From a virus (Duplodnaviria; Caudoviricetes), in the IMG/VR virus record IMGVR_UViG_3300017700_000721, positions 32,001 through 96,000 of that record: 64,000 nt of DNA. The stretch is one strand, 5' to 3'. The number at the start of each line of letters is the position of its first letter. The first letter of the stretch is position 1. Below, piece after piece: positions 17,551 to 63,720 of this stretch. Below the pieces are notes generated by a model. The model saw only the letters and a program-made list of their open reading frames with translations, searched no databases and was not told where the DNA came from. Made by a program: the position numbers and the translations under genes.

Positions 17551-17579
17551 ATTATAGCATAGTCGGAGGGTGGTGTCAA
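17551..17579 (-). promoter_or_regulatory. Consensus sigma70 promoter for the ligase gene
   Basis: TTGACA-17 bp-TATAAT with extended TG. Confidence 0.85.
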
Positions 17580-23471: not shown

Positions 23472-23500
23472 ATTATACCACGTCCCAATGGCGATGTCAA
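23472..23500 (-). promoter_or_regulatory. Consensus sigma70 promoter for the AAA+/vWA genes
   Basis: TTGACA-17 bp-TATAAT with extended TG. Confidence 0.85.
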
Positions 23501-24353: not shown

Positions 24354-26597
24354 TCAGGCTGCCAGCAGCATCTTGTCATACTCGCCCGCTGCGAGCTTGG
24401 CCAGGTCAATCTCCTTTTGGAGGCCCCAGACATCGCCCACCTTCGGGGCGACAGTGAGTTGAACCTGCCAGGTCTTGACCTCGAACTCCATGGCCTTCTT
24501 GATGATCGGAGCTACTTCCTGAACCAGCTCGTTCCGCACGAGGAACGCAAGCTCGTCATGGATCTGCATGGCGAAGGCCACGTCACGCCATTTGTAGCCG
24601 TGAAGCTTGAGAGCCTTGTCCACCTTCACCATCGCAATGCGCGTCACCTCAGCGGCGGTTCCCTGAATAGCGGTGTTCACCGCGGACCGATTGGCGAAAG
24701 CATGGATCTTCGGGTCGGGGTTATCATAGAACGACTTCAGGCTCCGCTTCCGACCGAAGAATGTGGTTGTGTAGCCGTTCTTCCTGGCAAAAACATGGAC
24801 CTTACCCATCCATCCGAATAGAACAGGGTGACCACGGACAAACCCGTCGTAGACCTGCTCGGCCGCGGCTCTGGGAATGTCAGCCTTAATAGCCAGAGTG
24901 TAGGCCGTTGCCCCGTAGAATGTTGCAAAGTTGAGCACCTTGCCCACGTCGCGCTTTCTCTTCTTCTCTTCCTTCGACAAGGCGTGGAATGTGTCAATCG
25001 GAATGCCATAAGCAGCGGCTGCCGTGAGAGAGTGGAGGTCATCTCCCTTGGCCAGAGCTCTGAGCCACCTAGGCTCGCCCGACATATTGGCACCAATGAC
25101 CAATTCCTGGCGGTCGTAGTCGAAGGAGAGTAGTTTGTAGCCCTTCGGAGCACGGAAGGCTTGGCGCACTGATGGGATCATCAGCACGCCCTTCTGTACT
25201 CGTCGCGTGGTGTCAATGTTGACTGACTCACACTGAGCTGGGCAGCCTACACACGTCTCGCGGATGCAAACAATAGGCTCGCGGCCTTCTTCGTCCTCAT
25301 CACCCTCTCTAGGGATGACATAAGGAAGGCTACGAACAACAGTCTGCCAATCAGCAGGAGCTTGAGGCGCTTCGCCAGGCTCTAGCCCTGCTCTCAGATC
25401 GATGAGGATGTCCGAGTCGTCAACCTGCGATATGTAATCGGCAGAGTCAGGCGTACCCTTCAAATCTACGGCCATCACTTCGCGAGCTTCGCCGTTAGAG
25501 ACGGCCTGAATGTTCACTCCTGTGGCGCCGTCGACGTCCGGATCACCGCCTGGGGCAGAGAACCTGAAAGTCGGAGCTGCAAAGGTGTTGAAGTTGAACC
25601 TAGGTTTGATCTCTCGATCGGAGAGTGCCTGTAGCTTATTGAAGTAGGAACTACGGGCCTTCACAATCTTCTTGTAAGCGATGATCGTCTCTACGATCGG
25701 ATTGGCTCGGGCGAGCTTCTCCAGCGCCTCTTCCTTGGTAACGTGGATTGGGTTCTTGCCCTTGGTCTTGCCTGGCGAAGGCAAGCCGCCCCGCTCGAAC
25801 AGAGCGTCGCCGAGCTGCTTAGGGCTGTTGATCTCGAAGGTGTAGCCGATCACCCGGAATATCTGCTCCCGCATGGTAGCAGCCCGGGTCTCAAGCATCG
25901 CCATCTGATTATCGATGTACTCCCGGTTGAGTTCCATCCCGCCGTTGTGTTCCATCCGGCGGACAATGTCGATGAGCAGGGTGTCAATCTGCACAGCCAT
26001 CGGGTTCTCAGTCGCAACGTAGGCGTAGTGATCCCACATCTGCATGCCTACGTCGGCGTCAGCACAGGCGTAGTCGGTGCATCGCTCCGGTGATTTGGTG
26101 GTAATATCCAGGCGACCTGCTTTGATCTCCTCGGGGGTGAAGAGGTCCTCGAACTTGGTCATGTCGATGCCCAAGTCTTCATGGGCCACCGTCTTCAGAC
26201 CAATCTTCTTCCGATCAGGGTCAGCTAGGTAGACAAGCTCAAGCGCATCGTTGAACTTGAAGTCAGGTTTCCACTTCAACCCCTTCTTGACCACCTGCAC
26301 CTGCAGGATGTTCAAGTCATACTTGGCGTTGTAGAAGATGGGGGTGTGAGACTCCATCTTCTCTTCCATGAGCTCCCAGACAGGCTCAAACGGTAGGTTC
26401 GCCTCGGGGTTCACTCGATGGTTAAATGGGACATAAAGGGCTGAGCCCTTCGCAAGAGACACTGACATTCCGGCAATGCCTGCGCGGCGAGTGTCAAGAC
26501 TCTTTGCCTCAGTATCCATCCCCATCTGGTTCTTGGGGTGGACTGTGGACAGATATTGCTTCACGTGGTCGAGTGACCTAGCTAACTCGTACGCCAT
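24354..26597 (-). CDS. polA: Family A DNA polymerase with 3'-5' exonuclease (likely replicative)
   Basis: ExoI DTE, ExoII YNAKYD, ExoIII YACAD; motif A FDYDRQE, motif B RDVGKVLNFATFYG, motif C QIHDE. Confidence 0.95.
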   Translation of the reverse strand: MAYELARSLDHVKQYLSTVHPKNQMGMDTEAKSLDTRRAGIAGMSVSLAKGSALYVPFNHRVNPEANLPFEPVWELMEEKMESHTPIFYNAKYDLNILQVQVVKKGLKWKPDFKFNDALELVYLADPDRKKIGLKTVAHEDLGIDMTKFEDLFTPEEIKAGRLDITTKSPERCTDYACADADVGMQMWDHYAYVATENPMAVQIDTLLIDIVRRMEHNGGMELNREYIDNQMAMLETRAATMREQIFRVIGYTFEINSPKQLGDALFERGGLPSPGKTKGKNPIHVTKEEALEKLARANPIVETIIAYKKIVKARSSYFNKLQALSDREIKPRFNFNTFAAPTFRFSAPGGDPDVDGATGVNIQAVSNGEAREVMAVDLKGTPDSADYISQVDDSDILIDLRAGLEPGEAPQAPADWQTVVRSLPYVIPREGDEDEEGREPIVCIRETCVGCPAQCESVNIDTTRRVQKGVLMIPSVRQAFRAPKGYKLLSFDYDRQELVIGANMSGEPRWLRALAKGDDLHSLTAAAAYGIPIDTFHALSKEEKKRKRDVGKVLNFATFYGATAYTLAIKADIPRAAAEQVYDGFVRGHPVLFGWMGKVHVFARKNGYTTTFFGRKRSLKSFYDNPDPKIHAFANRSAVNTAIQGTAAEVTRIAMVKVDKALKLHGYKWRDVAFAMQIHDELAFLVRNELVQEVAPIIKKAMEFEVKTWQVQLTVAPKVGDVWGLQKEIDLAKLAAGEYDKMLLAA

Positions 26598-27453: not shown

Positions 27454-27955
27454 TCTTCGCCTCTCTAACTCTATTATAACATATTTCGAGTGCTTTGTCA
27501 AGCTTTGATTTATCAGCCTGGCCGCGTTCGTAGGCCAGGAGCACCCGGTCAAAAGTCTCAGCTAGAGTGGCGTGCTCTCTCCTTGGGAGGTGGCGGGCTG
27601 TCTTTAGTACAGCCTCCACCTGGTTGCGCAACTTGGCGACTGTGTGGCGATCTGTTCGGTCATGCTCCTCCCCGAGGTCCACACCAAAGATCTTCTCCAG
27701 ATCCTTGAGTGAGTCCCTCCAAGGGACTCCATCGTTTACGTTCTTCACCTTCGCGTAGAACAGGTGAGGCGGTAGGGTGTAATCACACGAGAAGCAGTGC
27801 GCTAGGCTTGTCGTATGGTAAAAACCCGCAGAGGGGTCTCGGTCATCGTGAATTGGGCAGCAGAATGCAAACCGACCTGACTTCTCCAGGTAACTGATGC
27901 CCAGCAGCTTCAGTATCTGCTCAGGACTTATGAGCGGTTTCTGTTCGTGGTCCAC
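27305..27955 (-). CDS. Stand-alone primase CHC2 zinc-finger protein
   Basis: CPIHDDRDPS...AHCFSC; no TOPRIM domain follows. Confidence 0.85.
   Translation of the reverse strand: MDHEQKPLISPEQILKLLGISYLEKSGRFAFCCPIHDDRDPSAGFYHTTSLAHCFSCDYTLPPHLFYAKVKNVNDGVPWRDSLKDLEKIFGVDLGEEHDRTDRHTVAKLRNQVEAVLKTARHLPRREHATLAETFDRVLLAYERGQADKSKLDKALEICYNRVREAKNAFIDGQRIPETGPDAGIKEGAGNLPGSGPQANRRALAFEEPDESVDLD
27473..27501 (-). promoter_or_regulatory. Consensus sigma70 promoter inside the zinc-finger gene, serving the endonuclease gene and possibly polA
   Basis: TTGACA-17 bp-TATAAT with extended TG, about 20 nt before ATG 27453. Confidence 0.8.
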
Positions 27956-48070: not shown

Positions 48071-48088
48071 GCTTCAATCTCCTTGCCC

Positions 48089-48121
48089 AAAAGAAAAGGG
48101 CGGCCTGGTTAAGACCGCCCT
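48089..48121 (-). terminator. Intrinsic terminator after the major capsid gene
   Basis: Minus strand AGGGCGGTCT-taacc-AGGCCGCCCT followed by TTTCTTTT. Confidence 0.8.
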
Positions 48122-48144
48122 CCTCAATTTCAACGTGGGGCTTG

Positions 48145-49515
48145 TTAGCCGCTAGCCTTGCCGATGTTGCGGAAGACCACGTTCTTCTTCGGAGCGAAGA
48201 CGATCGGGGTTCCATACAGCAGCTGCATCCAGCGGATAGACGGGCTCACGATGGCGAGCTGCATCTTGATCATGGGCGACAGCTGCTTGAAAGTCAGCGA
48301 CTGCTGGGTGAGGTCGAGCATCAGGCCGATGAAGGTGTTCGGACGATACACGTTCTGATCGTTCCAGACCGTGCTGTTCACGTACACGCCACCGGACTTC
48401 GCGCGCGGGACGACGTAGCCGATGAAGTAGGCCACCGCTCCGTTCTTCTCGGTACGATAGACCTTGTAGGCCGTCGCCGGGAAGGTACCGCCCTGGTCCG
48501 CGATCGTCAGCGGAACCATCTGGGTCGTGGCAACCGTGACGGCCGAGCTGAGGGCCGTGGCCGCCGACTCGCCGTACTGGTTGACCGCGCTCACCGCGTA
48601 CTTGTAGTCGCCGGCGTCCGTGGTCTTGAACTTCGGCGAGGCCGTTCCGGTCGCCGCAGCCGGCGTGACGGTCGGGGTGTTCGGCGCCTTGGTCGAGTTG
48701 GCCGACAGGGGCGGGGTCGTGCCGGTCTTCACGAACGTGTCCGGCTCGAAGCCAACCAGGCCCGAAGAGGTCTGGACGCTCGTGACGGGCGTGCCCACCG
48801 GGCCAACCTGACCAGCGGAGAAGCGCTGATACTGGTTGTAGTAGTTCGAGAAGTCCGAGAAGACCTTGTTGTTCGAGAAGAGCTTCATCGGCACGCCGAA
48901 GTTCTCGGCGACGAGGTAGGCTCCGAGCTCAACCTGCTCCTTGGTGAGCGGGGCGCCTTCGCAGTCGATGACGTGGCCTGCGCCACCTTCGATCTGCTTG
49001 GTGAGGCTGTTCCACTCGACCGGGACAGCATCGGCGTCGCCGTAGTAGAGGCCGTTGTTCGCCTTGCCCATCAGCCAGAGGGCGCCATTCGACGTCTCCT
49101 GGGCGATGATGTCGGCCGGCACGGTGCGCACGAGGGTCGCGGGGTGGTTGACGGCTCGGGTCGTGCCGAGGTACTTCACGAGCTGGTTCGTGCGCTCGTA
49201 AGTGCTGTCCTCTTCCTGCGGAAGCTCGCCGGACTGGGTGAAGCCGCCGCCCTGGCCGCCGTACTCGAGCAGGCGGTTGTATTCCTCGACGGTGGAATAG
49301 GCGTCCGTCTTCGGGATCATGTTCCACAGCTTGATGTTGGTCGCGCTGTAGGTGAGCAGCTTGAGCGTGGCTTCCAGGCTCTCGACTCGCAGGGCATCGA
49401 AGCCGGTGCCGGTCGCAGGCATCTGATAGCCGATGTCGAGCGCCTTACGCAGCTCGCCGAGGTCAGCAAGCGAGGAAACCCCGAAGCCTTCCTGCAGATT
49501 GATCTGACCTTCCAT
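48145..49515 (-). CDS. Major capsid protein, SPO1/Twort (Herelleviridae)-like type
   Basis: ALRVESLEATLKLLT, AYSTVEEY, VKYLG, YYGDA, QLSPMIKMQLA, LLYG..IVFAPKK; strongest codon bias; followed by a terminator. Confidence 0.9.
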   Translation of the reverse strand: MEGQINLQEGFGVSSLADLGELRKALDIGYQMPATGTGFDALRVESLEATLKLLTYSATNIKLWNMIPKTDAYSTVEEYNRLLEYGGQGGGFTQSGELPQEEDSTYERTNQLVKYLGTTRAVNHPATLVRTVPADIIAQETSNGALWLMGKANNGLYYGDADAVPVEWNSLTKQIEGGAGHVIDCEGAPLTKEQVELGAYLVAENFGVPMKLFSNNKVFSDFSNYYNQYQRFSAGQVGPVGTPVTSVQTSSGLVGFEPDTFVKTGTTPPLSANSTKAPNTPTVTPAAATGTASPKFKTTDAGDYKYAVSAVNQYGESAATALSSAVTVATTQMVPLTIADQGGTFPATAYKVYRTEKNGAVAYFIGYVVPRAKSGGVYVNSTVWNDQNVYRPNTFIGLMLDLTQQSLTFKQLSPMIKMQLAIVSPSIRWMQLLYGTPIVFAPKKNVVFRNIGKASG

Positions 49516-49563: not shown

Positions 49564-50208
49564 TTACTGACCGGCCACCTTCTTCTGCGCGGCCGCCAGG
49601 TCTGCATCGCTGATCTGGCCGGTGGACTCGAACTTGATGGCTGCGGTGAGCCACTGGTTGCTCTCGGGCGTGTTCGGCCCGAAGGACTTCGCGAGCTGCT
49701 CGAGGCCGAACGAGATCTGGCGGCGGGCGGCGGCCTTCTGCTCCGGCGTCATCTCAGCGGCGGTCAGGGCCTTGGCCGGGGTAAGCGACTTGTTGAGCAC
49801 CTCGGCCGGCTGGGCCGTGATGGTCTTCGGGGCGGCGACGGTGCCGTCACCCATCTTCTCGATGGCCGCGGTGTTCGCGTCGATCGACTTCTTCAGGTCC
49901 GTGAGCACCCGGATGTTCGCCAGGTTGAACTCGCGACCGTTGGTGATCGACTTCGCCATCGCTTCGAGCGAGCTGTCGATGTGGGCGCCGAACAAGGAGA
50001 CGACCTCGTTCAGGAGGTCCGAAACCTCGAGGCCCTTCAGGAGCGGAGCCGAGGCCTTGCCCTTGAGTGCGTCGATCGACTTGTTCAGCACCTGGACCTC
50101 GACGGTCGGCTCGGCAACGACCGCAACGGCGGCCGGCTTCGCGGTGAGATCATTGATCGACTTGAGGAGATCTTCCTCGGTCACAACGGCGGGGGTGGCG
50201 GTGGACAT
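49564..50208 (-). CDS. Scaffold-like head protein
   Basis: Between protease and capsid; Ala/Lys-rich; about 7 repeats of [LM]xK[SG]. Confidence 0.65.
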   Translation of the reverse strand: MSTATPAVVTEEDLLKSINDLTAKPAAVAVVAEPTVEVQVLNKSIDALKGKASAPLLKGLEVSDLLNEVVSLFGAHIDSSLEAMAKSITNGREFNLANIRVLTDLKKSIDANTAAIEKMGDGTVAAPKTITAQPAEVLNKSLTPAKALTAAEMTPEQKAAARRQISFGLEQLAKSFGPNTPESNQWLTAAIKFESTGQISDADLAAAQKKVAGQ

Positions 50209-50212
50209 TGAG

Positions 50213-51016
50213 TTAGCTCCTCGAGTTCGACTTGTAAAGGGTATATTTCACGACCTTACTCGCAAGGTCATAAGACCAGGCAGGCTTCTGCTTCAAGACG
50301 AAGAGAATGGCTTCGTCGTTGGTAAGCGGCCGGGACGCGGTGTCGCTCTTGGCCAGGATCTCTTGCTGAGCCTTGACCACTTCCTCTGCCACGTGCTTGG
50401 CAAAGTCTGCCGGCAAGCCCTCCGTCCCAGCCAGAGCATTGTAGGCTGCGAGGCTCTTGCACATCTTGACGAGGGTAAGCGGGTGCACCGGAGCGGCTGT
50501 CACGGCGACCCCGTGGACGAAGGCCTTCACGATGTTGCCGTTGCGCGTGTCGCGGGCGATCTTGCCGTCGAGTGACAGGCCCAGGCTTCCCTGGTCACCG
50601 TTGACCGACTTCATGATGTTACGGATCTCTACCGCCTTCGGGACGTGCTTGTAAAATTCCCCTTCCACGAAGACGGAGGCAGAGTCCGGCGCGTTTGGAA
50701 AGTCCGACTTGCGGAGGGCTTCCAGCTTGGCGGGGGTGATGATCGAAATTCCCGTCAGGAAACCCACCTGGTCGGCAGGCTGACGGGAATGGTCCCAATT
50801 GACGAAGCCACGCTGGGCGGCGTACGACAGGTCGAGGGACTTGCGCAGGATTGTGTCACCCTGCTGATCGCGGTTCTCGTCGGAAGCAATCCCCTGAAAC
50901 CGCCACGGACCTTCATCGCCTTCAGGCGCGATGGCCTTGAAGAGATCGGCCTTAAAGAGGGCTTCCGAGGGACCTTCACCTAGGCTCGGGTCGGTCGAGA
51001 TTTCCGATGTGAACAT
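50213..51016 (-). CDS. Prohead protease
   Basis: FQGIAS...DQQGD, GFVNWDH, LGLSLDG, VAVTAAPVHP. Confidence 0.85.
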   Translation of the reverse strand: MFTSEISTDPSLGEGPSEALFKADLFKAIAPEGDEGPWRFQGIASDENRDQQGDTILRKSLDLSYAAQRGFVNWDHSRQPADQVGFLTGISIITPAKLEALRKSDFPNAPDSASVFVEGEFYKHVPKAVEIRNIMKSVNGDQGSLGLSLDGKIARDTRNGNIVKAFVHGVAVTAAPVHPLTLVKMCKSLAAYNALAGTEGLPADFAKHVAEEVVKAQQEILAKSDTASRPLTNDEAILFVLKQKPAWSYDLASKVVKYTLYKSNSRS

Positions 51017-51068: not shown

Positions 51069-52052
51069 TTAACATGGCGAGTCTGGACCGTAGATCTTCC
51101 GGATGGCGGATATTATCAGGAGCTCGTGGGCCGGTATTTCCTCGCCGTGACCATGACTTTTCAGCATGTCGGCAGAGGTTGTCAGCGGCGTGATTGAGGA
51201 TTGCCTCTTGAGGGACTTCTCCATCCTCTCTTCCATCGCTGAGGCCAGAGCTCTGTCAACCCGCGGTTCGTTCTGGCTCGCCATGTACAGGATACAATAG
51301 CAATGAGGGTGCACGGGCCCAATCGTGAATTGCCATGCGTAGGCCGGGACTCCCCAATTGCTGTTTCCGATCACGTCGGAAAGGCGGTACATCTTCGGTG
51401 AGCCGTCTGAGTTCGTGTGGAGGTCCAGGCAATAGTCACACGCGGCTGGCCTGGGCACCTTGTACACTAGCTCGTCTTCGTCCTTGTCTACGATTTGTCC
51501 TTGCTGGAAGTAGCTGTGAAGCTCGGTCTGCAAAAGACGGTCGATCTGGCTCGTAAAGGACTCTGTTTCGCCTGTAAGGGCGGACACTAGCTCGGTCAGC
51601 GCAGAGTTGCGGGCAACAGATCGGGCAGCAGCGTCTACAAATGTCCCTTTGACTAACACTGAACGCCAATCACGGTCAGCGTTTGCTATAGCCAGTCTGT
51701 ATTTGGATTGAACAGCGTCCGTGCGGCTTTCCAGCCAACGCTCGGTGTCGTTGCGCATCTGCGCAAGATGAGCCTTCTCTCGATCGTTCAGCTGGACGTT
51801 GTTATTGTAAACCCACTGGGCGATCTGATCCTTGCTCATGGTCTTCAGGGCGTTAGGGCCCAGAAGAGAGGCTACCTTTCCCGCCATGTAACTCTGCTCG
51901 AGCACTGTCATCCGAGACGTTGAGACTGCTGACGAGATGGCGGTCGGGATTGTCTGACCAAGGCCACGGCCAATTGTGTAGGCCGAGAAGGCGCTTCCTA
52001 GCGCCCTCAAGACCGACATGATGCGACCCTCGGTTTCCCGGCCGAGCAGCAT
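51069..52052 (-). CDS. MuF/SPP1 gp7-like minor head protein
   Basis: QTEL, ACDYC, GPVHPHCYC. Confidence 0.7.
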   Translation of the reverse strand: MLLGRETEGRIMSVLRALGSAFSAYTIGRGLGQTIPTAISSAVSTSRMTVLEQSYMAGKVASLLGPNALKTMSKDQIAQWVYNNNVQLNDREKAHLAQMRNDTERWLESRTDAVQSKYRLAIANADRDWRSVLVKGTFVDAAARSVARNSALTELVSALTGETESFTSQIDRLLQTELHSYFQQGQIVDKDEDELVYKVPRPAACDYCLDLHTNSDGSPKMYRLSDVIGNSNWGVPAYAWQFTIGPVHPHCYCILYMASQNEPRVDRALASAMEERMEKSLKRQSSITPLTTSADMLKSHGHGEEIPAHELLIISAIRKIYGPDSPC

Positions 52053-52388
52053 TTAGGCTGCCATCATCTGGTGGCGTCGACGATCGTTCACCAATGACAG
52101 GATGGCTTCGGCCTCTCCCACACCGGCGCCCAGGTCTCCGGACTTTGTGGTTGCGATGATTGTCCCACGACAGTTCTCCAGCTTCAGGTCCGGGAAGTGC
52201 ACCCGTATTCCCTTCGCGGTCGGGATCCAGAGCACGTGCTCTCGCTGGTGCGGCTTGACCTGGTGTCCGCGCGCGATCCTGCGGGTGAACGGGTTCAAGA
52301 ACCTGTCCATCGGACTGTATCGCTCGGGTACGAGACCGCGGTCCTTCATGTAGGACAGCAACTCGATAAACTTCTGTTCAACACTCAT
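52053..52388 (-). CDS. Hypothetical protein
   Basis: 111-aa ORF tightly coupled to its neighbours. Confidence 0.55.
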   Translation of the reverse strand: MSVEQKFIELLSYMKDRGLVPERYSPMDRFLNPFTRRIARGHQVKPHQREHVLWIPTAKGIRVHFPDLKLENCRGTIIATTKSGDLGAGVGEAEAILSLVNDRRRHQMMAA

Positions 52389-52555
52389 GTGTCGGACTCC
52401 AGCTCAGGATCTTCAATAACTTCTTCCAGTCTTCCGCCCATAGCAAGATAGAGCTCTTTCGCCTTCCTCCAAAAGGCATCCGTCCACTTCGGACGTTCTA
52501 AACCCGCCTTCTTCAAGGCTAAGTTCCACAGTTGAGGGCTTCTAATCCAGCTCAC
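52385..52555 (-). CDS. Small hypothetical protein (56 aa)
   Basis: Not in track; manual translation MSWIRSPQLWNLALKKAG...FWRKAKELYLAMGG...; GTGA and ATGA overlaps at both ends. Confidence 0.65.
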   Translation of the reverse strand: MSWIRSPQLWNLALKKAGLERPKWTDAFWRKAKELYLAMGGRLEEVIEDPELESDT

Positions 52556-53028
52556 GTCTTCTTCGTCAGCCTCACACGCTGCTCGCGAGTCACCGAGCCA
52601 CGCTTCAGGATCTTGCTGAGGACCTGCTCGTATTTGTTGTCGGTGTTGGCCACGATGCCCAGGTCGATGCAGCTGATCATAACCTCCTCGCCATCTCCTG
52701 GAGGAGAGTCAGGGGTGTCAACCTTGACCGCCCGGCAATAGACCTGCGGCGCTCGAACAACCGGCATATTGGTCACGTGCCAGATACCTTCGAACCCAGA
52801 GGCTTGGGTCTCGAAGACGGTGCCCACTCGACCCAGCCAATCGAGGTCAAGGTCGTTACCTTCGATCTTCTCGTTGTAAGCTGAGTTGTACTGCCGGACG
52901 TCGCCGAACTGCTGCTCTTCCCCACGTAGGTTCCGGGCGTAGTCATTGGGATTGATGGTGTCGGGGTCGATTGAACGATAATCGTGCTTGTTGAACCCCA
53001 TCGTAGCGGGATCCCAGTTCTTTGACAT
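52552..53028 (-). CDS. Hypothetical protein
   Basis: GGAGG RBS; TATTAT element upstream. Confidence 0.6.
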   Translation of the reverse strand: MSKNWDPATMGFNKHDYRSIDPDTINPNDYARNLRGEEQQFGDVRQYNSAYNEKIEGNDLDLDWLGRVGTVFETQASGFEGIWHVTNMPVVRAPQVYCRAVKVDTPDSPPGDGEEVMISCIDLGIVANTDNKYEQVLSKILKRGSVTREQRVRLTKKT

Positions 53029-53102
53029 CAAACGACCTCCATGATCTTCCTATAATACCCTCAGTCTAACCTTGTTAGATGCTCGAGAGGGCGGAGAGGA
53101 GG

Positions 53103-55721
53103 TTACTTGGAAATGGCTTTCCAGTTAAGACCGGCTCTGGTGTCCACCTTGAAGGGCAGAAAACCCGGAAGCGGCTGATGGAACTTCTCCAAGCTGATCT
53201 CTCGGACCTTCTCCACGAGTTCGTTCTTCACCACAAAGATGAGCTCGTCATGCATCTGCAGACCCAGGCGAACGTCATCAAAGGAATAATCCTTCCTGAG
53301 GGTGTTGAAGATCTGTGCCTGCCTAATCTTCAGGATCTCGGCGGCGGTGCCAGCGTTGTGATGGTGCCAGGCAGTCTTCCGGAAACCGTGAAGAGCAGGA
53401 CCGCGAGCCGTCTTGATCCCCGGTAGGTACCTGGTCCGGCCGAAGCGGGTTGAGACAGATCCCGTCTTGGCGGCTGCTGAGAGAATGTTCTCACGATACT
53501 GGTCAGCCAGAGAGGCACGGGCCTTGTATCCAGCAATGATCTTCGCGGCCTCTGGCATGGCGATGCCGAGACGTTTAGCCAGGATAAACTCCTGCATGAG
53601 GTACAACAAGGCGAAGTTGATCGTCTTGCCAGCCTGGCGCTTGTCTGGGTTATGAAGGTCAACGCCGGGCGCGGCAGCCATTACCTCGTCGTACATCTGG
53701 ATGTGAAAGTCTACCCCGTTGACGAAAGAGGCTGACAGCACTGGGTCACCTGACAGGCTGGCCCAGGTGACGTACTCGGCCTGGCCCAGGTCGTTAGACA
53801 GAAGGGTGTAACCCGAGGGGGCTTCGATCGTCTCCCGAATAGGGACAACCCGGTTCTGTAGGTTGGGGCTGTCCGCAGTGTACCGACCATGAGGTTGACC
53901 GTACTGGTTCCAGTTCGTCTGGACGGAGCCGGCGTTGGCGTAAGGCTCCCATTCCTTGAGCTGAGATAGAGTCGACTGGGATCCGCGAGCCTCCATGATC
54001 GCACCCGCGATCGGATAGCCCATCGCGTCCAGCGCCTGGAGGGTGTCGTCGTCCGTCGAGGCCTTCCCTCCCTTGCTGATGCGCTGGGTTGGGAGGTTCA
54101 TCACCTCGAACAGGATGCGAACGCAGTCGCCGGGCGCGTGGGGACGGAACTCCTCTCCGGCAAGCTCGTGACAACGAGCTACCAGCCGATCCGTCTCTTT
54201 CTGCTGAGCCTCCAGGTTCCGCTGCCAGGTCTCCTTGTTGACGACAAGGGCCGTTCGGTTCATCTCCTCCGTCATCGGCTCGAGGTTGTGCTCGATCTTC
54301 GACGAGTTCGACCCGGCTGGCAAGATGACGTCGAACTTCTCGATGCGGATTTCCTGCATGGTCTCATTATACTCTGTTTTGGACTCGGTGTCAAGTCCTA
54401 ATTTACCTTCACCCGCCCTGCGGATCTGGGTCGGATCTTCCACTGTCCTGTAGGATCCGTCCTCGCGGACTACCTTCACGATGCCGTTCTCAGTCCGCTT
54501 GACTTTCGCCGGATGCCACTGACCCTTCGAGTCACAAATCTCGACTTCAGAGTCGTCCGGGTACGCACCGGTTACAGTTCCAACTGTCAACAACGTATCC
54601 TCTCGAGGCGGGCGGCCCTTGAAAGCCTGAGCGTAGAGTTCCTCGAAGCTAGGCAGCTTGACCTTTGCTCCGTCTTCCTGTATATACTGAATAGTAAGCT
54701 TGAGGGCCTCGCGAGCTTCGTCGCGCATCCCTTCCCAACGAGCCTCAACCATTGCAGCTAACTCAAAAGATGCCTCCGCAATCGCTTCCATTCGTTGCCA
54801 TTTCGCGTTGTCGCGAATGGCTCTGTTGGCTGCGTCCGGAGACAGGTCTGAGACCTCGACGTACATCTCGCCCCAGAGGGCTGTGCGCTCCTCGTCTTTC
54901 ACCTTAGCCCTGTGACGGGCCTCAATCTCTTCAGTGCTCTTGTCTCCGGAGACAAGCGTCTGTAGGGCCTCCGGTGTGTACTTCCGGGCCTTCTCGGCGA
55001 TGGGCTCAAACCTTGAGGGGAGGGCATAAACCTGGGTTTGCAGGACCAGGCTAGCTAACGTCTCAGCTTCTTTCAGATCCTGAAAGGGCGAGGGGTCACT
55101 GTCTAGTGGGAACACCTCGTCAACCCAGAAGACCTTGCAAAGAAGGGCTGGGACTTGCATAGCCATTGCCGCGAAGCAGGTTGCATTGCCCGAAAGAGCC
55201 CAGAATGTCTGGGTCCCCTTCACCGCAATAAGTGACGGTACTCGCATTTTCCCGCTGAGGGCGTCGCTAAGCTCAGCAGCGTCAAACCCACCGTAGGTGA
55301 TAGCGTGCGTAGGTACAGTCGCTTCGTCGTAATCCTGACCAATGTCACCTTTTCGCATTAGTGACGGGTCTTGGTTCAGACGGCCGTGATCCCACGTGAT
55401 CTGGGCTATCACGCCCTTCACGTACTGATCAGAGATCTGCTTCAGGTTGTTGGGAGCGTCGTGTTCTTCCCGGCGAGCGTAATCCCTCAGAGCCTGCTCG
55501 TAAGCCCCTTCGATCCTCTCTTCGTGTAATGACTTCCTCATGAGGGACCCTTCGATGGCTCCCTCGTCCGGATCTGGAGGAGCTTCGTGGATGTCCCTCT
55601 TGATCAACTCCAGAACCATCGCCACCGTAGCTTTAAGGTCAAGCCTGGCTTGCTTTTCGAGCTCGTCTAGCGACTTGTAAGGAAGCTTACGACGCTTCAC
55701 CTTTAGCTTGTTGCGGGCCAA
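53103..55721 (-). CDS. Second family A DNA polymerase: 454-aa non-exonuclease N-terminal extension plus a 418-aa polymerase domain
   Basis: HGRYTADSPNLQN, motif A NDLGQAE, motif B RQAGKTINFALLY, motif C QMHDE; TTG start 12 nt after the portal stop with AGGAGAAG RBS. Confidence 0.9.
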   Translation of the reverse strand: MARNKLKVKRRKLPYKSLDELEKQARLDLKATVAMVLELIKRDIHEAPPDPDEGAIEGSLMRKSLHEERIEGAYEQALRDYARREEHDAPNNLKQISDQYVKGVIAQITWDHGRLNQDPSLMRKGDIGQDYDEATVPTHAITYGGFDAAELSDALSGKMRVPSLIAVKGTQTFWALSGNATCFAAMAMQVPALLCKVFWVDEVFPLDSDPSPFQDLKEAETLASLVLQTQVYALPSRFEPIAEKARKYTPEALQTLVSGDKSTEEIEARHRAKVKDEERTALWGEMYVEVSDLSPDAANRAIRDNAKWQRMEAIAEASFELAAMVEARWEGMRDEAREALKLTIQYIQEDGAKVKLPSFEELYAQAFKGRPPREDTLLTVGTVTGAYPDDSEVEICDSKGQWHPAKVKRTENGIVKVVREDGSYRTVEDPTQIRRAGEGKLGLDTESKTEYNETMQEIRIEKFDVILPAGSNSSKIEHNLEPMTEEMNRTALVVNKETWQRNLEAQQKETDRLVARCHELAGEEFRPHAPGDCVRILFEVMNLPTQRISKGGKASTDDDTLQALDAMGYPIAGAIMEARGSQSTLSQLKEWEPYANAGSVQTNWNQYGQPHGRYTADSPNLQNRVVPIRETIEAPSGYTLLSNDLGQAEYVTWASLSGDPVLSASFVNGVDFHIQMYDEVMAAAPGVDLHNPDKRQAGKTINFALLYLMQEFILAKRLGIAMPEAAKIIAGYKARASLADQYRENILSAAAKTGSVSTRFGRTRYLPGIKTARGPALHGFRKTAWHHHNAGTAAEILKIRQAQIFNTLRKDYSFDDVRLGLQMHDELIFVVKNELVEKVREISLEKFHQPLPGFLPFKVDTRAGLNWKAISK
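54366..54394 (-). promoter_or_regulatory. Perfect sigma70 promoter internal to the second polymerase gene
   Basis: TTGACA-CCGAGTCCAAAACAGAG-TATAAT-GAGACC-ATG (in-frame Met455 at 54359). Confidence 0.85.
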
Positions 55722-55733
55722 GTGCTTCTCCTG

Positions 55734-57212
55734 TTAGGAGTCCAGCTCCTGGGTGATGTCTACGTCGCGACCGTCTGGATCGTCGGTGGCCTCGGTCGGC
55801 TCTTCAAGGTTCTGGTCCTGCTTCGCCTGGAGCTCTTCCGCTTCCATCTTGTCCAACCTAGCAGTATACAACGGATCAAGGATGATGTCTCCCGCCTTCA
55901 GCGGCGGCTCGTTGCGGTCTGCGCGAATGTCATTCACTGTCCGGAACGATTTGACCTCGGAGTTGATGATCTCCGAGTCAATCTTCCGATCCTCGTCAAG
56001 ACCCAGGAATTCCAGACGATATCGAGGATCGATCTTCTGGATCAGATTGGTGTTGAGGTTGTTCGCCAGAAATGTCAGCAACGGGCGTAGGCCACGCTGC
56101 TTTGAGACGGCCTGCTTCTGAGGCCCTGAGCTGTCGAAGGTGACGGCTGCGCCAGACTGGCCAATCTGCCAGTTGATCTCCGTAGGGTCAATCTGATAAA
56201 CCCCGCAGGCCTGTTTGACCAGGAAATCAAACATCATGGAGTATTCCATGTCACGGTTTGAGCGGTCAAGCTCCTTCCAATCAACCTCACCATCCTTGCC
56301 AATCTTCAGCACCGGAGGGTTCCAGGCGTGAGCTGCGTTGCGGATAGCCTGCCGGAAATCACGCTTGAAGACTTGGAACTGGGTGTCATCAACGTCACCC
56401 TTCACGATCATTACACCTTTGGCAGTTCCGCCCTGGGTCAGCTGACCGGCGTTGAACTTGTCGGCGTTCAGCATTGTCGTGATGGTTCGAACCAGGATCT
56501 CAAGTTCAGAGTACCCGTAGCCCATCATCTGGATGTTGGTCTGCGGGTTACGCACACCAAAGATCATCTCCTTGCGGGAATACTCTGCTACAATACGCTC
56601 GTGGAGCACCTGCACGTACCAAGGGTCATCAGACAGAGGATCCGACGCCTTCGAGAGCGATGCCTTCAGCTTACGAATGGTACCAGCATCTACGGCCACA
56701 ACGTAGGAAGGCAGACCGTTGCGGCGACTCACAATCTCGGCGTTGGCCTGGTCAAGCTCCAAACTGTCTCGCATGAACTGTCGGGTAAAGTCCTCCAGCG
56801 AGGCTTCACCGTAGCCCACGGTTCCCATCGTGTAGATCCAATCACGGAGGGCAAGGGTCTTGGCGTTGTCCTTCTTGGCGGCGTTGTCATCGCTGACGAT
56901 CTCGTACCCCAGAGTGTAGCGCTGGGTCCGGGGGGTGCAGAAAGCAGCCACCTGGTTCAGCCGGGTCTGGATGATGGACCCAATGATGGGGTTCTTGGCC
57001 ATCGCGCGCAGGTCGTAGGTCGACAGTGCAGACTGGGGGCGCTGCATCCACTCCGGACCCATGAACATGGTCAGCGGATCGTAGAACGTTGTCTGAGGTT
57101 CATGTGCCCGATCACGGATCTGCTCGATCGCCTTCTCGATCCGTTCCTCTACGATGGCGGCACCGAAGGAGTCCCCGATGATCGTCCTTACGCGCTGACC
57201 TAGCGAGGGCAT
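55734..57212 (-). CDS. Portal protein
   Basis: Follows TerL; IIQTRLNQV, RDSLELDQ, GVRNP, GYGYSELE, NRDMEY, CGVYQIDPTEI, GLRPLL, RTVNDIR. Confidence 0.9.
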   Translation of the reverse strand: MPSLGQRVRTIIGDSFGAAIVEERIEKAIEQIRDRAHEPQTTFYDPLTMFMGPEWMQRPQSALSTYDLRAMAKNPIIGSIIQTRLNQVAAFCTPRTQRYTLGYEIVSDDNAAKKDNAKTLALRDWIYTMGTVGYGEASLEDFTRQFMRDSLELDQANAEIVSRRNGLPSYVVAVDAGTIRKLKASLSKASDPLSDDPWYVQVLHERIVAEYSRKEMIFGVRNPQTNIQMMGYGYSELEILVRTITTMLNADKFNAGQLTQGGTAKGVMIVKGDVDDTQFQVFKRDFRQAIRNAAHAWNPPVLKIGKDGEVDWKELDRSNRDMEYSMMFDFLVKQACGVYQIDPTEINWQIGQSGAAVTFDSSGPQKQAVSKQRGLRPLLTFLANNLNTNLIQKIDPRYRLEFLGLDEDRKIDSEIINSEVKSFRTVNDIRADRNEPPLKAGDIILDPLYTARLDKMEAEELQAKQDQNLEEPTEATDDPDGRDVDITQELDS

Positions 57213-57249
57213 TTATCTCTCCATCCTGATGCTCAACGCTCGTACTTGC

Positions 57250-58740
57250 TTAGCCAAAGTCAGCGGAGAAGGTTGTGGCACGCGAAGCTACGAGCGCATG
57301 CCAGATGGCCATAACCACGTCGTCGTGGGTGGTCTCGTTGCCAATCCTACCGTGTCGCTGCTGAATACCGTTGAACTCCGTAACGATGTAGTCAGTCATG
57401 ATACGGTCTTGGTCGGTCTTGTACGGGAACCTGAACTGTAGGTTCTCAAACAGCGGGCGGATCGAGAGAAGACCTGTCTCCATCGACCTCTTGTTCTGAC
57501 CCGTCACGGTGTGGCCTCGAACAGGCATCCGACTCTTGTTCTTGAAGTGCTCCCGGTAAAGGCCTTGGAACATGTTGTCTTCAAGAAAGCCCAGGGTTAC
57601 TTGGTACATTTGGCAGTAGTATTCAATCTGGTTGATCTGCTCCTGCATGAACTGAGGGCGGGCTCGCCAATAGTTCAGAAGTGTGTAAAGGTTCGCGCTC
57701 TTGTCGTACTCCAAAGCTACGATAGCGGTCCAGTCGCCGTCGTTAGATCCCGGTACTGAAAAGTCCACCCCCAGGAAGACAGGGTTTCCACCTGTATAGT
57801 TCCTGGAGTAGGATAGCTGGCGGTCAAACAGTGGCTCGAGAAGGCTCGTCGGGAAGATCGTGGTCTCGTCCGAGAGCGGCTTGTTCATATACTCCTTGGA
57901 GAAGGAGAGACTGCCGACCTTCCGTCGGATAGCCATCAGATCTTCTGCAGAGTAACGATCGGCCCACAGTGGAATGGTCATCGCCTCGTCGACGAAAGCG
58001 GCGAGCTTTGCTCCCGTGTACTCACCTCCCTGGAGCTGCTCGTGATACATATCGTCGGTATCTTGGGCGGTGCCCACCGTAACAATCTGCGACTTGAACC
58101 CTTGAAGGCGGACCTTGGCGGTGCCCTTGTCCTTCATGGGGAAGACCACTTCGTTGAAGCGAGTCTTCATCATCTTCCGCACGTCAGCTGACCAGCTGTT
58201 CTTTTCGTTCAGCACGTCGTCCAGTAGGATCAGCTGCGGATGGCGGCCACGCAAAGGCGACATGAAACCCTTCGCCTTGATGACCTTCTGGTTCCCCAGC
58301 TGCATCTCGGTTCGGGAGTCAGGGCCGTGCGATCGTCCTTTCGGGAGAAGGGGCCAAAGAGACTCCCGATTGTTCATCAGGATCTTCATCTTGTCCAGGT
58401 TCTCGACGGCGGTCGGCTGGTCAGGACCAAGGATCAAGATGTCTTGTACCCAAGGATCGTACTTCGCCTTCCAGAGGGCATAGGCTCTGATCAGCGAGTG
58501 ACTCTTCCCGTGATCTCGAGGGGCCATCTCTATCACGTCATCGCCCGTCTTCAGGTGATCCCACCAGATCTTATGCTGAGGACCAATCTCAAAGCCCAGC
58601 TCCACCTTCTGGAAGACTAGGAAGTTGGTCCTACACAGCTGCCGGACAGCGTGTTTAATCCCTGCGGCGTTACCGCCCAGGAAGGCTCCGGCTGCTTTCG
58701 ACTGGCTAGTGCCGGGCCGAGGGAGGTGGTAAAAGGTCAT
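57250..58740 (-). CDS. Terminase large subunit
   Basis: Walker A APRDHGKS, RGRHP, Walker B ILLDD, VGT, nuclease LGVDF, HDDVVMA. Confidence 0.93.
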   Translation of the reverse strand: MTFYHLPRPGTSQSKAAGAFLGGNAAGIKHAVRQLCRTNFLVFQKVELGFEIGPQHKIWWDHLKTGDDVIEMAPRDHGKSHSLIRAYALWKAKYDPWVQDILILGPDQPTAVENLDKMKILMNNRESLWPLLPKGRSHGPDSRTEMQLGNQKVIKAKGFMSPLRGRHPQLILLDDVLNEKNSWSADVRKMMKTRFNEVVFPMKDKGTAKVRLQGFKSQIVTVGTAQDTDDMYHEQLQGGEYTGAKLAAFVDEAMTIPLWADRYSAEDLMAIRRKVGSLSFSKEYMNKPLSDETTIFPTSLLEPLFDRQLSYSRNYTGGNPVFLGVDFSVPGSNDGDWTAIVALEYDKSANLYTLLNYWRARPQFMQEQINQIEYYCQMYQVTLGFLEDNMFQGLYREHFKNKSRMPVRGHTVTGQNKRSMETGLLSIRPLFENLQFRFPYKTDQDRIMTDYIVTEFNGIQQRHGRIGNETTHDDVVMAIWHALVASRATTFSADFG

Positions 58741-59344
58741 TGACCCCGATCACAATGTCACCGTTAATGATGAGGTCCGTGAGGACATCCGAAGCGTCTT
58801 GGGTGAGGCCGATCCCGTTCTGTTCCAGCTTCTTGATGTCCTCTTCCATCTTGTCCACTGCGCTGCCTGGGACCTTCGCCAGCATCGCGTGCAGCTTCGT
58901 CAACATGTCGTTCTGCACAACCATCTCTTGACGAACGCGCTTGTCCGAGTAGGCCGGGTTGACCTTCTGCTTCTCTTTCTCGTTCCTCACGAGGGTGTCA
59001 ACCCTCTGCTTCTGCGTGTATATGTTCTGTGACATCTCTCGGATGATGTCGATGGTGACCGTACCGCCCATCTTCTCGATCATCTCCTCGGCCCAGGAGA
59101 GATTGACCTGAACCTTGGTCTCCTTTAGGTTCCGGAAGATGGTTGGGGCTGAGATCCGGTATTCCTGACCCTGCTCAATCAGCCACTTCTCAATGTCTCG
59201 GTAAGGAATTGCCTGCAGACGCATGCTAATGATAACGTCGCAGAATGGGGACTGACGGATGGCACAGGCTTTGTTAAGCCTCGACCGAACCCTACCAATC
59301 AACCCGTGAGGATCCGGGAGAACTTGACGCTTTACGGTTGCCAT
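58706..59344 (-). CDS. Putative terminase small subunit
   Basis: Upstream of TerL; HTH-like N-terminus then coiled coil; start at TAATG overlap. Confidence 0.55.
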   Translation of the reverse strand: MATVKRQVLPDPHGLIGRVRSRLNKACAIRQSPFCDVIISMRLQAIPYRDIEKWLIEQGQEYRISAPTIFRNLKETKVQVNLSWAEEMIEKMGGTVTIDIIREMSQNIYTQKQRVDTLVRNEKEKQKVNPAYSDKRVRQEMVVQNDMLTKLHAMLAKVPGSAVDKMEEDIKKLEQNGIGLTQDASDVLTDLIINGDIVIGVNDLLPPPSARH

Positions 59345-59967
59345 TAGGCAGCCATCCTTCGCGGCTGAGCAGCGAGGGCTTCGAGCCTTTCCTGCTTCTT
59401 GGTTTGGAGGGTAAGGTGCTTGTTCATATGTGCGAGTGAGACCGAGGAAACACGCACGTAATAAACGAACGGCGACTTTGACCAATCAGCCTTCAATTCG
59501 TAGGGTCGAGCTGTCGCCTTGAGTCCTAGCTCTGTCATGAGGGCGTAAACCTCGCCTGCCAGTTCTCGGTGGACTGTGGCGTAGTAAACCAGGGTTGACT
59601 TGTTCTCCTTCGGCTTGGAGACAGACCCGTCCGAGTCCATCAATCCTTCGAGGAGCTTCCACTGGAACTCGGGAGCCCAATCCAGCCAGCCGACAGGTAG
59701 GCGCTTGTTCGTGGCGTTGGTGTGGATGTCCAGGCCTGCCGATATGCAATCAGCCGTCATCTCTCGGGTCGAGGTATAAACTAGATGTCCAGACTTCTGA
59801 GGATTAAACTTCCGGAAGGTTCCGTACTCTTCCAGAGCGGCAGCCACCTTCGGGTAGTCATCAGCGTTACAAATCCACCTGAGCTGCTCGAGACCGTGGT
59901 TGTTAACGTACCAACCATCTCCAATCCAGTAACCCAACAGGTAAGCGAGAGGCAAGGATCCAATCAT
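59344..59967 (-). CDS. Free-standing LAGLIDADG (intein DOD-type) homing endonuclease
   Basis: Two motifs, YLLGYWIGDG and LLEGLMDSDG; KRLP..W; no Hint domain. Confidence 0.85.
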   Translation of the reverse strand: MIGSLPLAYLLGYWIGDGWYVNNHGLEQLRWICNADDYPKVAAALEEYGTFRKFNPQKSGHLVYTSTREMTADCISAGLDIHTNATNKRLPVGWLDWAPEFQWKLLEGLMDSDGSVSKPKENKSTLVYYATVHRELAGEVYALMTELGLKATARPYELKADWSKSPFVYYVRVSSVSLAHMNKHLTLQTKKQERLEALAAQPRRMAA

Positions 59968-59969
59968 AG

Positions 59970-60578
59970 TCAGTGTACGACTCTAATGTTGAAATTGTGA
60001 TCCAGCAACAGTATCAACCCCAATTGCTTGTACCATTTGTCAGGGTCTTTAGGCTCAAGATCGGCCAGCTTGTTCTTGGTCTTCGTAAATATCCACTTCA
60101 CTGTTGACTGGCGGACGTCATGCTTCTTTCCCACCATCTCTTGGTTCAGCCAATAGAACAGGTCGAAGAGGATGTCCTTTTCCTTCTCTTTCAAGAAGTA
60201 GAGCTCGCCTAGGACGGCACGGAGAGGGATGTCCGCAATCGTCATCAGGTAGCGTAGCTTGATAATGGTTCGGCGGTAGCGATACGAGACGGTTGGCTGA
60301 GAGATCCCAAGGAGGACCGCAATGTCCTTCTGGTGCTTCTTCTTCTCGTAGATCAGCCAGAAGATCTCTGCCTCTAGCTCTGGCAGGAACTTCATCAGCG
60401 GCTTGACTTCCATGTCCAGATAGAACCCAGACGGATGGGCGTCCGCGATGTCCTGAGCGTCAAGGTAATCGAGTGTCGCCGGGTCTACGGGAAAGAATAT
60501 CTCCCGTTGGTAAACTGTGTCTAGGTTCTCTGATGCGACGATGCCTTGGCCCGCCGCGTGTTGCTTACGCACTACCAT
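59970..60578 (-). CDS. Regulator with tandem sigma70 region 4-like HTH domains
   Basis: QKDIAVLLGISQPTVS and QEMVGKKHDVRQSTV. Confidence 0.7.
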   Translation of the reverse strand: MVVRKQHAAGQGIVASENLDTVYQREIFFPVDPATLDYLDAQDIADAHPSGFYLDMEVKPLMKFLPELEAEIFWLIYEKKKHQKDIAVLLGISQPTVSYRYRRTIIKLRYLMTIADIPLRAVLGELYFLKEKEKDILFDLFYWLNQEMVGKKHDVRQSTVKWIFTKTKNKLADLEPKDPDKWYKQLGLILLLDHNFNIRVVH

Positions 60579-63184: not shown

Positions 63185-63213
63185 AAAAGAAGCCCGGATG
63201 AGCCGGGCTTCTT
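63185..63213 (-). terminator. Intrinsic terminator
   Basis: AAGAAGCCCGG-atgag-CCGGGCTTCTT followed by T run on the minus strand. Confidence 0.75.
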
Positions 63214-63232
63214 GGTTCAGGTTGATGTGACC

Positions 63233-63640
63233 TCAGGCGGCGATCGCCTCGGGGGCGACAGCCAGGACAGCGTCGACCGGGACGTCGGTCGCCATCTGGA
63301 GCTCTGCGGTGCCGGCCAGGATCGCGGCGGCCTGCTTGACGTAGATCTGGGCGTTCTCGAGCTCGTTCGCGGCGATCACGATGTGATGGATCTTCATCAC
63401 GACCGAGGCCGCATCGGCGAACCGGGCGTAGCGCTTGCCGCGCACTTCGAAGCAGTACTGCTCGACCGGCTTGTGGCTGGCGCCGTGGCGGAACTGGGTG
63501 CCCCAGGAAATCTTGGTGATGACCGTCGAGAGAACCTTCTCCGAGCGGTTCTTGCCTTCGCCCCAAACGGCGATCAGCTGACGGTTGGCGGAGGTGGCGG
63601 AGCCGGTACGGCGGAGAGCGTCGATCTGCATGTTGGCCAT
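63233..63640 (-). CDS. Hypothetical early protein (own promoter and terminator)
   Basis: AAAGGA RBS before ATG 63640 (leaderless ATG 63685 also possible); strong codon bias. Confidence 0.65.
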   Translation of the reverse strand: MANMQIDALRRTGSATSANRQLIAVWGEGKNRSEKVLSTVITKISWGTQFRHGASHKPVEQYCFEVRGKRYARFADAASVVMKIHHIVIAANELENAQIYVKQAAAILAGTAELQMATDVPVDAVLAVAPEAIAA

Positions 63641-63691
63641 TTGACTGTTCCTTTTGTCCGTGAGCCGCGTTGTGCGCCTCATCATGTATGT

Positions 63692-63720
63692 ATTATAGCA
63701 CGTCTCAAGGGAACAGTCAA
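63692..63720 (-). promoter_or_regulatory. Sigma70 promoter
   Basis: TTGACT-17 bp-TATAAT with extended TG. Confidence 0.8.

Follow-up and report, generated by a model that had tools for sequence, protein, structure and literature searches.

A consensus promoter written into the linker codons of a phage head-module DNA polymerase gene, and its probable polymerase-only product

In the genome of an uncultivated tailed phage (Duplodnaviria; Caudoviricetes) recovered from a metagenome, the gene that follows the portal gene encodes a family A DNA polymerase fused to a long N-terminal extension, and a perfect promoter lies inside its coding sequence, at the boundary between the two parts. The genome is IMG/VR record IMGVR_UViG_3300017700_000721, a contig of 118,081 bp whose ends overlap exactly by 123 bp (1–123 versus 117959–118081), a sign of a closed circular assembly and a complete genome; its major capsid protein is about 40% identical to the capsid proteins of SPO1-like Herelleviridae. 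The window analysed here is a stretch of 64,000 nucleotides (nt) from this contig, positions 32,001 to 96,000, and coordinates are those of the window unless the genome or a relative is named. Here we describe the embedded promoter and its conservation, and propose that it probably gives the gene a second product, the polymerase domain alone.

The polymerase fusion gene and its internal promoter

The gene and the elements embedded in it are as follows.

53103..55721, minus strand: full-length open reading frame (ORF) of 872 amino acids (aa), an N-terminal extension fused to an exonuclease-less family A DNA polymerase; at least 24 full-length homologues
54389..54394, minus strand: −35 hexamer TTGACA in codons 443–445 (cTT GAC Acc, Leu-Asp-Thr), invariant or with one mismatch in 14 aligned homologues
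54388–54372, minus strand: spacer of 17 nt
54366..54371, minus strand: −10 hexamer TATAAT in codons 451–452 (TAT AAT, Tyr-Asn), against the genes' own preference for TAC and AAC
54365–54360, minus strand: GAGACC, the 6 nt between the −10 and the ATG
54357..54359, minus strand: ATG of Met455, predicted transcription start (its A, 7 nt past the −10) and predicted leaderless start codon of the short form
53103..54359, minus strand: predicted short product of 418 aa, the polymerase domain alone
54360..54404, minus strand: codons 440–454, predicted disordered linker that carries the promoter

The long ORF starts at a TTG (55721) that is preceded by an AGGAG Shine–Dalgarno (SD) sequence at 55732–55728, and the portal stop codon lies 12 nt upstream. 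The original prediction had read TTGACA, 17 nt, TATAAT, GAGACC and ATG along the minus strand, ending at an in-frame Met455; the letters are correct, the ATG is codon 455 of the 872-aa ORF, and 418 codons run from it to the stop. In a consensus scan the promoter scores 12/12 (sigma-70-type consensus TTGACA, 17 ± 1, TATAAT). The window sequence has no SD-like run 4–14 nt ahead of ATG455. With 6 nt from the −10 to the ATG and no SD sequence, the geometry fits position 54359 as the +1 of a leaderless mRNA.

The C-terminal part is recognizable as a polymerase. Residues 502–868 match PF00476, the Pfam family A polymerase, with 200.7 bits against a cut-off of 34.3, Pfam and PHROGs place the domain at about residues 475–868, and a phmmer comparison with Klenow gave an E value of 1.7e-39. 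The motif A, B and C residues D644, R695, K699, F703, Y707, D825 and E826 (Asp; RxxxKxxxFxxxY; HDE) are invariant in 24 homologues. Residues 21–414 of the 418-aa product align to chain residues 205–602 of the Klenow polymerase domain, so that the whole domain is covered. By contrast with the phage's second, canonical PolA (24354–26597), which carries a 3′–5′ exonuclease domain (exo+), the 872-aa protein gave no match to PF01612 at E values up to 0.1–1, and its gene sits between the portal and capsid genes; it is, as first described, an exonuclease-less minimal PolA in the head module.

The promoter lies in a stretch to which the structure models give low confidence. Predicted local distance difference test (pLDDT) values fall below 50 at residues 440–454 in the full-length model and at 442–454 in the model of the N-terminal part, between a small barrel that ends at residue 435 and the polymerase module, which begins at 458.

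Conservation of the junction promoter

The original prediction had asked whether homologues keep both the open frame and the promoter; most of the loci examined do. At least 24 proteins of 817–917 aa, from independent metagenomes, match the fusion protein over 99% of its length at 33–73% identity, and the fusion gene follows the portal gene in every fetched locus. Of 20 related loci (L numbers below), 16 have the promoter at this junction, two 11/12 matches included, and the homologues that bear it have 36–73% protein identity.

Junction promoter 12/12: the window, L001, L002, L004–L009, L077, L081, L082, L083 and L010 (in L010, about 60 nt further upstream)
Junction promoter 11/12: L079, L080
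Junction promoter 10/12: L003
Junction promoter absent: L076, L078, L111

The mean major-allele frequency across 14 aligned copies is 0.99 in the hexamers versus 0.66 in the spacer; because the hexamers are fixed and the spacer varies, the junction promoter is not a recently transferred block. The hexamers are read in frame as cTT GAC Axx ... TAT AAT, and the family linker therefore has the consensus (L/V/F)-D-x6-Y-N-x-x-M, with the residue after Asp nearly always encoded by an A-initial codon. Sites 451–452 are TAT AAT in 14 of 16 sequences, whereas conserved Tyr and Asn residues elsewhere in the gene are encoded by TAC or AAC in 76–94%. In the window gene itself, AAT accounts for 4% of the other Asn codons and TAT for 20% of the other Tyr codons. 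Given each gene's own codon usage, the joint probability of GAC, TAT and AAT is 10^−14.7 across eight lineages that share no more than 52% protein identity. L004 reads its −10 in a different frame (GGT ATA ATA, Gly-Ile-Ile) after a spacer of 16 nt; here the protein has changed while the promoter has stayed. Read together, these alignments indicate that selection on the junction promoter acts at the level of DNA, not of protein, and that the embedded 12/12 promoter is most plausibly a working phage promoter kept by selection.

The base before the −10 hexamer (window 54372, position −13) is G in 14 of 14 junction promoters and, in the codon alignment of 16 homologues, in 87.5%. Despite this G, amino-acid conservation at residue 450 is 25% (E, V, R, G, W, L or M), and intergenic promoters have C, T or A at the same place. 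A canonical TGn extended −10 would impose Cys, Trp or a stop at codon 450; the sole junction copy with such an element (L079, TGG) has a weaker −35, TTGACG.

The promoter class across the genome

Exact matches to TTGACA-N16–18-TATAAT occur four times in the window, all on the minus strand, versus 0.00 expected from 100 dinucleotide-preserving shuffles. The whole genome holds 17 perfect copies, each with a 17-nt spacer and all on one strand, and none but the copy at 54366–54394 lies in the interior of a long ORF.

17551–17579, minus strand: perfect promoter copy
23472–23500, minus strand: perfect promoter copy
27473–27501, minus strand: perfect promoter copy

The genes downstream of these three other window copies all have SD-led starts; they are a DNA ligase gene, a MoxR/CobS-like ATPase gene and the gene that lies directly before the canonical exo+ PolA. 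From the genome-wide copies and the SD-led genes behind the other window copies, the class appears to be the phage's standard strong promoter, recognized by the housekeeping holoenzyme of the host. In most intergenic copies the −10 is extended by T(A/G)TGn and C-A-T stands at +1, and several copies overlap the 3′ end of the preceding gene.

Two further members of the class are worth recording. At 63692–63720 a near-perfect promoter with TGn (TTGACT, 17 nt, TATAAT) is followed, exactly 7 nt past the −10, by an ATG that opens a 150-aa ORF (63233–63685); promoter and first codons are kept in L001 (2795–2823). As a second clear leaderless gene this case was set aside as ambiguous, since an in-frame SD-led ATG lies 45 nt further on. 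At genome position 97126–97154, about 1.1 kb past the end of the window, a perfect promoter has at +1 a five-codon mini-ORF, ATG AGC AAT CCG CTC and a stop (MSNPL). The mini-ORF recurs in L001 (1377–1405), a relative of 73% identity, with identical letters except in the stop codon, which is TGA in this genome and TAA in L001.

A start codon at the predicted +1 and stand-alone polymerases

Where the −10 is in frame, the seventh nucleotide past it always opens a codon. At that place the 14 in-frame copies with a 17-nt spacer carry ATG in 10 cases and GTG in 4, that is, a start codon in 14 of 14, compared with an ATG in 2 of 19 other promoters and near-promoters of the genome. Met455 is conserved although it lies inside the low-confidence linker of both structure models. 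Over their first 50 nt, the predicted transcripts are less strongly folded than shuffled sequences in seven of eight homologues (z +0.4 to +1.75), weak support for use of this start codon.

Some relatives have shorter architectures.

L083: 569-aa form with only the helical hairpin ahead of the polymerase
L011, L013, L014, L018: split forms with a stand-alone polymerase of 419–422 aa, which begins at the junction behind the same promoter
L111: split ahead of the Tudor-like domain

Stand-alone polymerases of this length are found in L085 as well. In L011 and L014 the only start of the stand-alone polymerase is an ATG 4–5 nt past a −10, without an SD sequence, and L011 has a stop in frame directly before it; L013 and L018 have the same promoter and, after it, a normal SD-containing leader. 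Because the split relatives keep both, promoter and polymerase form a conserved module, with an open upstream frame or a closed one. The extension also occurs by itself, in many proteins of 330–520 aa, two of which (P0073 and P0079) stop right after the Tudor-like domain. A single-sequence search for shorter homologues of the extension found none; a profile search did find such proteins, together with about 17 fused representatives among 1.84 billion proteins.

On this evidence we consider it likely that one gene makes two products by way of a conserved embedded promoter and a leaderless start. The promoter is written into the codons of the predicted disordered linker as the consensus given above, and RNA polymerase would start at the A of ATG455, 7 nt past the −10. 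The transcript would then begin with a 5′-terminal AUG and, for that reason, would be translated without a leader into the 418-aa polymerase domain alone. The 872-aa form (helix, ParB/sulfiredoxin (Srx)-like domain, helical hairpin, Tudor-like barrel, polymerase) would come only from longer upstream transcripts, translated from the SD-led TTG right after the portal gene, and the transcript from the internal promoter probably continues into the downstream head genes. The core of the original prediction, an internal promoter, an in-frame start at +1 and a polymerase-only product beside the full-length protein, is thus strongly supported by DNA-level conservation, by ATG or GTG at +1, by stand-alone short polymerases and by the disordered linker.

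Transcript reach and rival explanations

How far a transcript from the internal promoter might run depends on the genes around it.

57250–58740, minus strand: large terminase gene
55734..57212, minus strand: portal gene directly upstream of the fusion; the order large terminase, portal, polymerase fusion is kept in all relatives examined
Downstream of the fusion gene, minus strand: genes of 159, 55, 111 and 327 aa, in that order
50213–51016, minus strand: prohead protease gene
49564–50208, minus strand: scaffold-like gene
48145–49515, minus strand: major capsid gene
48071..48144, minus strand: first convincing intrinsic terminator downstream of the internal promoter, a hairpin GGGCGGTC...GGCCGCCC followed by a T run, just past the major capsid gene

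A terminator-like hairpin at 52495–52481, picked up in the consensus scan, was considered as the end of a short early operon and rejected, as it lies inside a 55-aa ORF that is conserved in L001. Because this candidate is inside an ORF and there is no earlier terminator, the internal-promoter transcript probably also carries the head genes. The 55-aa ORF (52386–52553), previously unlisted, overlaps both its neighbours, at the stop of the 159-aa gene (GTGA) and at the start of the 111-aa gene (ATGA), and has a 56-aa match in L001.

Several observations weigh against a gene with two products. The junction promoters are without the TGn extended −10 that is present in most intergenic copies. An ATG at +1 is partly a promoter trait, because CAT stands at +1 in many promoters of the phage. 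The two other promoters with an ATG at +7 from the −10 show no clear leaderless gene. Met455 is also kept in the promoter-less relatives L076 and L111, so that its conservation may have a different cause. In Escherichia coli, GTG works poorly as a leaderless start. Nothing terminator-like lies between the internal promoter and the capsid-gene terminator, which means that feeding the downstream genes may be a main role, and in L001 and L076 a promoter stands right after the polymerase gene.

The rival that survives best builds on these last points. It takes the promoter as real, but as one for the downstream genes (the 159-aa gene, the small ORFs, the 327-aa gene, protease, scaffold and major capsid protein), the 5′-terminal AUG being little used and no meaningful polymerase-only protein being made. 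We regard this as unlikely, though several points are in its favour: apart from the embedded copy, the roughly 22 kb of structural genes hold no strong sigma-70-type promoter, and no terminator follows it until after the capsid gene; L076, having lost the junction promoter, has a perfect one 5 nt after the polymerase stop; other relatives have promoters in the head module; and CAT at +1 is common in the phage's promoters. Yet the promoter is always found at the boundary of extension and polymerase, 1.3 kb ahead of the next gene, even where there is room after the gene, and L001 has both. Nor would a role for downstream genes account for start codons at +1 in every one of the 14 copies, or for the stand-alone polymerases of L011 and L014, which have no other start signal.

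It is improbable that ribosomes initiating internally at Met455 of the long mRNA, or proteolysis of the linker, give a short form in place of a leaderless transcript. Met455 persists in L076 and L111, L078 has GAGG 8 nt ahead of the aligned internal ATG, and a linker as disordered as the models predict would be open to proteases; but no SD sequence precedes ATG455 in the window, and a perfect promoter kept against codon bias would be left unexplained. Hardly credible is a motif due to chance or to the protein, or the rival that the original prediction had itself set out, a recent fusion of two genes or a sequence error: split versions of the gene do exist in relatives, but no copies are expected by chance, the codons run against bias, and a fused frame kept in at least 24 full-length proteins from independent samples, down to 33% identity and after the portal gene in every locus retrieved, with about 17 fused representatives by extension profile, refutes recent fusion and assembly error.

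If one gene does make two products, the two forms may also be timed differently, as an early short form and a late long form. The perfect promoter class does precede replication genes in this genome. A good intrinsic terminator lies at about 63191–63216, past the 150-aa ORF, and no site scoring above 9/12 lies between it and the internal promoter; terminator and lack of a strong promoter after it speak in favour of separate control of the long form. A late-promoter motif for the structural genes was sought by eye in the intergenic listing, where nothing convincing appeared. Other relatives carry the same promoter type further inside the head module, and a strict label of 'early promoter' is weakened for that reason.

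Comparison with known systems

Two products from one frame, one of full length and one shortened at the N terminus, are common in phages; examples are T7 gene 4A/4B, T4 gene 49 and phiX174 A/A*. Most phage genes of this kind use an internal SD-led start on the same mRNA, and in T4 gene 49 the choice is set by the transcript made. We know of no two-product phage gene with a perfect consensus promoter in frame in a linker.

In Tn5 an internal promoter yields an in-frame short form: the Tn5/IS50 transposase and its inhibitor (promoters P1 and P2) are two N-terminally different proteins from one frame, each with its own transcript, the shorter from the downstream promoter (PMC4265352), and the phage gene resembles them in this. 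Unlike the Tn5 promoters, which overlap near the 5′ end of the gene, the phage promoter stands at a domain boundary, 1.36 kb into the ORF, where it would remove a multi-domain extension of 454 aa, and its short mRNA is predicted to be leaderless. The Tn5 inhibitor is without only about 55 N-terminal residues.

The predicted start also has counterparts. In Deinococcus–Thermus, −10 motifs directly ahead of ATG or GTG, one of them inside an annotated ORF (then GTG), drive leaderless expression (PMC12340547; reviewed in PMC9031893). As in those genes, the phage −10 lies a few nucleotides before the start codon and the mRNA would begin at the start codon; unlike them, with their ordinary or re-annotated starts, the phage gene has an upstream frame that appears truly open, is conserved and would be read as a longer protein. 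The lambda cI mRNA made from P_RM is likewise leaderless, with its −10 a few nucleotides ahead of the start codon. In Caulobacter, a sigma-70-like promoter inside ftsW gives a shorter in-frame product, ftsWs, verified by reporter fusions; that product is a 35-aa fragment of a cellular gene, and the parts of the report available to us describe no deep conservation of the embedded promoter (PMC4117421).

The 418-aa product is like Klenow, or the isolated polymerase domain of E. coli Pol I, in spanning the whole domain. Unlike Pol I, the phage protein has no 3′–5′ exonuclease domain, is the second polymerase beside a canonical exo+ PolA and belongs to the head module. A literature search for a second polymerase in a phage head module found nothing, a nucleotide search of the phage collection with 52000–58000 gave no match, and a search of the same collection with the polymerase protein gave distant polymerase domains only. 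Microcystis phage Me-ZS1 was rejected as a counterpart: it matches residues 340–870, but its gene is in a replication context and not after a portal gene.

The mechanism is already known in kind; what is new is the deep conservation of a consensus promoter overprinted on the linker codons of a second polymerase in the head module. As a natural instance of coding sequence overprinted with a regulatory element it would be unusually clean, with five linker residues dictated by a promoter that is held down to about 36% protein identity and readable from synonymous sites alone, and it would serve as an example of phage isoform control by transcript choice. The case also suggests a search rule for embedded promoters, which is to look for a perfect promoter that lies in frame within a disordered linker and has a start codon at +1. 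It draws attention to a conserved, unstudied module (large terminase, portal, extension, exonuclease-less PolA) in which the second polymerase would be made both free and fused to a head-module protein.

The N-terminal extension and possible head targeting

Residues 1–454 have no Pfam or PHROG match. The model of the N-terminal part (pLDDT 81.5) has, in order, a long helix, a disordered stretch at 53–65, an alpha/beta domain at about 125–240, a long helical hairpin at 250–350 and a small barrel at 392–435.

55533..55721, minus strand: residues 1–63, a conserved basic N terminus (KVKRxKLP) and long helix ending in [L/M]-x-K|S; candidate propeptide or capsid-targeting segment
55002..55349, minus strand: residues ~125–240, ParB/sulfiredoxin-like domain by weak Foldseek matches
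54405..54566, minus strand: residues ~386–439, Tudor/Agenet-like small beta-barrel by Foldseek and VIA

In the model, residues ~386–439 are a Tudor/Agenet-like five-stranded barrel, a likeness of fold and not of function. Foldseek aligned the barrel to the Tudor domain of PHF20 with a template modelling (TM) score of 0.8 and a root-mean-square deviation (rmsd) of 1.4 over 50 columns (E 3e-3), and solved Tudor domains gave TM scores of 0.76–0.81 and rmsd values of 1.2–1.6 over 50–52 columns, with VIA Z scores of 7.5–7.7. The Pfam Agenet match to the barrel (E 0.062) is below threshold. For the alpha/beta domain, Foldseek returned weak but consistent matches to Noc, ParB and Srx (E 1e-3 to 1e-2), among them a phage ParB/Srx protein with a TM score of 0.67 over 98 columns; the arginine-rich ParB box is absent from residues ~125–240, and the family consensus GxAxxLAA stands in its place. 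A protein atlas agrees with the ParB/Srx and Tudor assignments, as a lead. In a wide VIA-align search with the N-terminal model, matches to the long helix dominated, and the Tudor-like barrel was the only addition. Membership in the MuF/SPP1 gp7 minor head protein family (PF04233) was considered but found no support: the sequence gave no match, the listed structural matches do not include it, and all that the fusion gene has in common with it is its place after the portal gene.

A short motif may connect the extension to the head proteins. EL(R/K)K|A is common to the capsid proteins of eight phages, at residues 20–27 (window 49441–49455, capsid residues 21–25), and the scaffold-like protein has 6–7 copies of [L/M]-x-K-[S/A] in the window and 6–9 in nine relatives. 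[L/M]-x-K|S also stands at aligned residue ~61, in the disordered stretch past the first helix, in all fusion proteins but that of L010, and in the split 220-aa protein of L111. The motif is probably the prohead-protease cleavage motif of this phage group. With such a site at residue ~61, residues 1–63 would be a propeptide, and the motif shared with capsid and scaffold may mark the fusion protein for the head; the conserved position after the portal gene and the conserved putative protease motif both point that way.

Capsid-targeted cargo is known from the T4 internal proteins and Alt, which have a cleaved targeting sequence, and from the N4 virion RNA polymerase. The fusion protein is like such cargo, as a working analogy, in being encoded in the head module and in having an N-terminal segment that ends at a motif common to capsid propeptide and scaffold. 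Tentatively, then, the long form could be a virion protein: residues 1–63 would serve as a capsid-targeting propeptide cut at [L/M]-x-K|S, and the ParB-like/Tudor/polymerase body would sit in the head near the portal and the DNA end, to be delivered with the genome or to act in packaging (for example, in gap filling or in regenerating genome ends), the same domain being supplied free in the cell from the embedded promoter. This we hold to be possible rather than probable. To our knowledge no packaged DNA polymerase has been described in tailed phages; if the proposal is true, this would be one, with a single gene serving two compartments.

Other observations

The only cellular lead comes from L085, a chromosomal copy in a 1.7-Mb contig of an Acidobacteriota metagenome-assembled genome (3980–5248 and 5426–6646). 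Its short polymerase, of 44% identity, adjoins an ATP-dependent DNA ligase, an IS1595-type transposase and a Gp49-like gene and is preceded by TTGACA-17-TTTTAA-N6-GTG. For host range, and for a part in gap filling, this copy offers a weak lead.

A 202-aa protein (window 59970–60578) that matches sigma-70 region 4 (36 bits, above the cut-off) is encoded two genes ahead of the large terminase and is conserved there in all relatives; it could be the small subunit of the terminase, or a sigma-like factor of the phage that serves the structural genes. The window also has a free-standing LAGLIDADG endonuclease ORF (59344–59967) directly ahead of the large terminase gene, and three relatives have intein-like terminase genes of 822–858 aa with LAGLIDADG/Hom_end matches (L003, 5898–8474; L078, 2028–4496; L083, 3896–6418).

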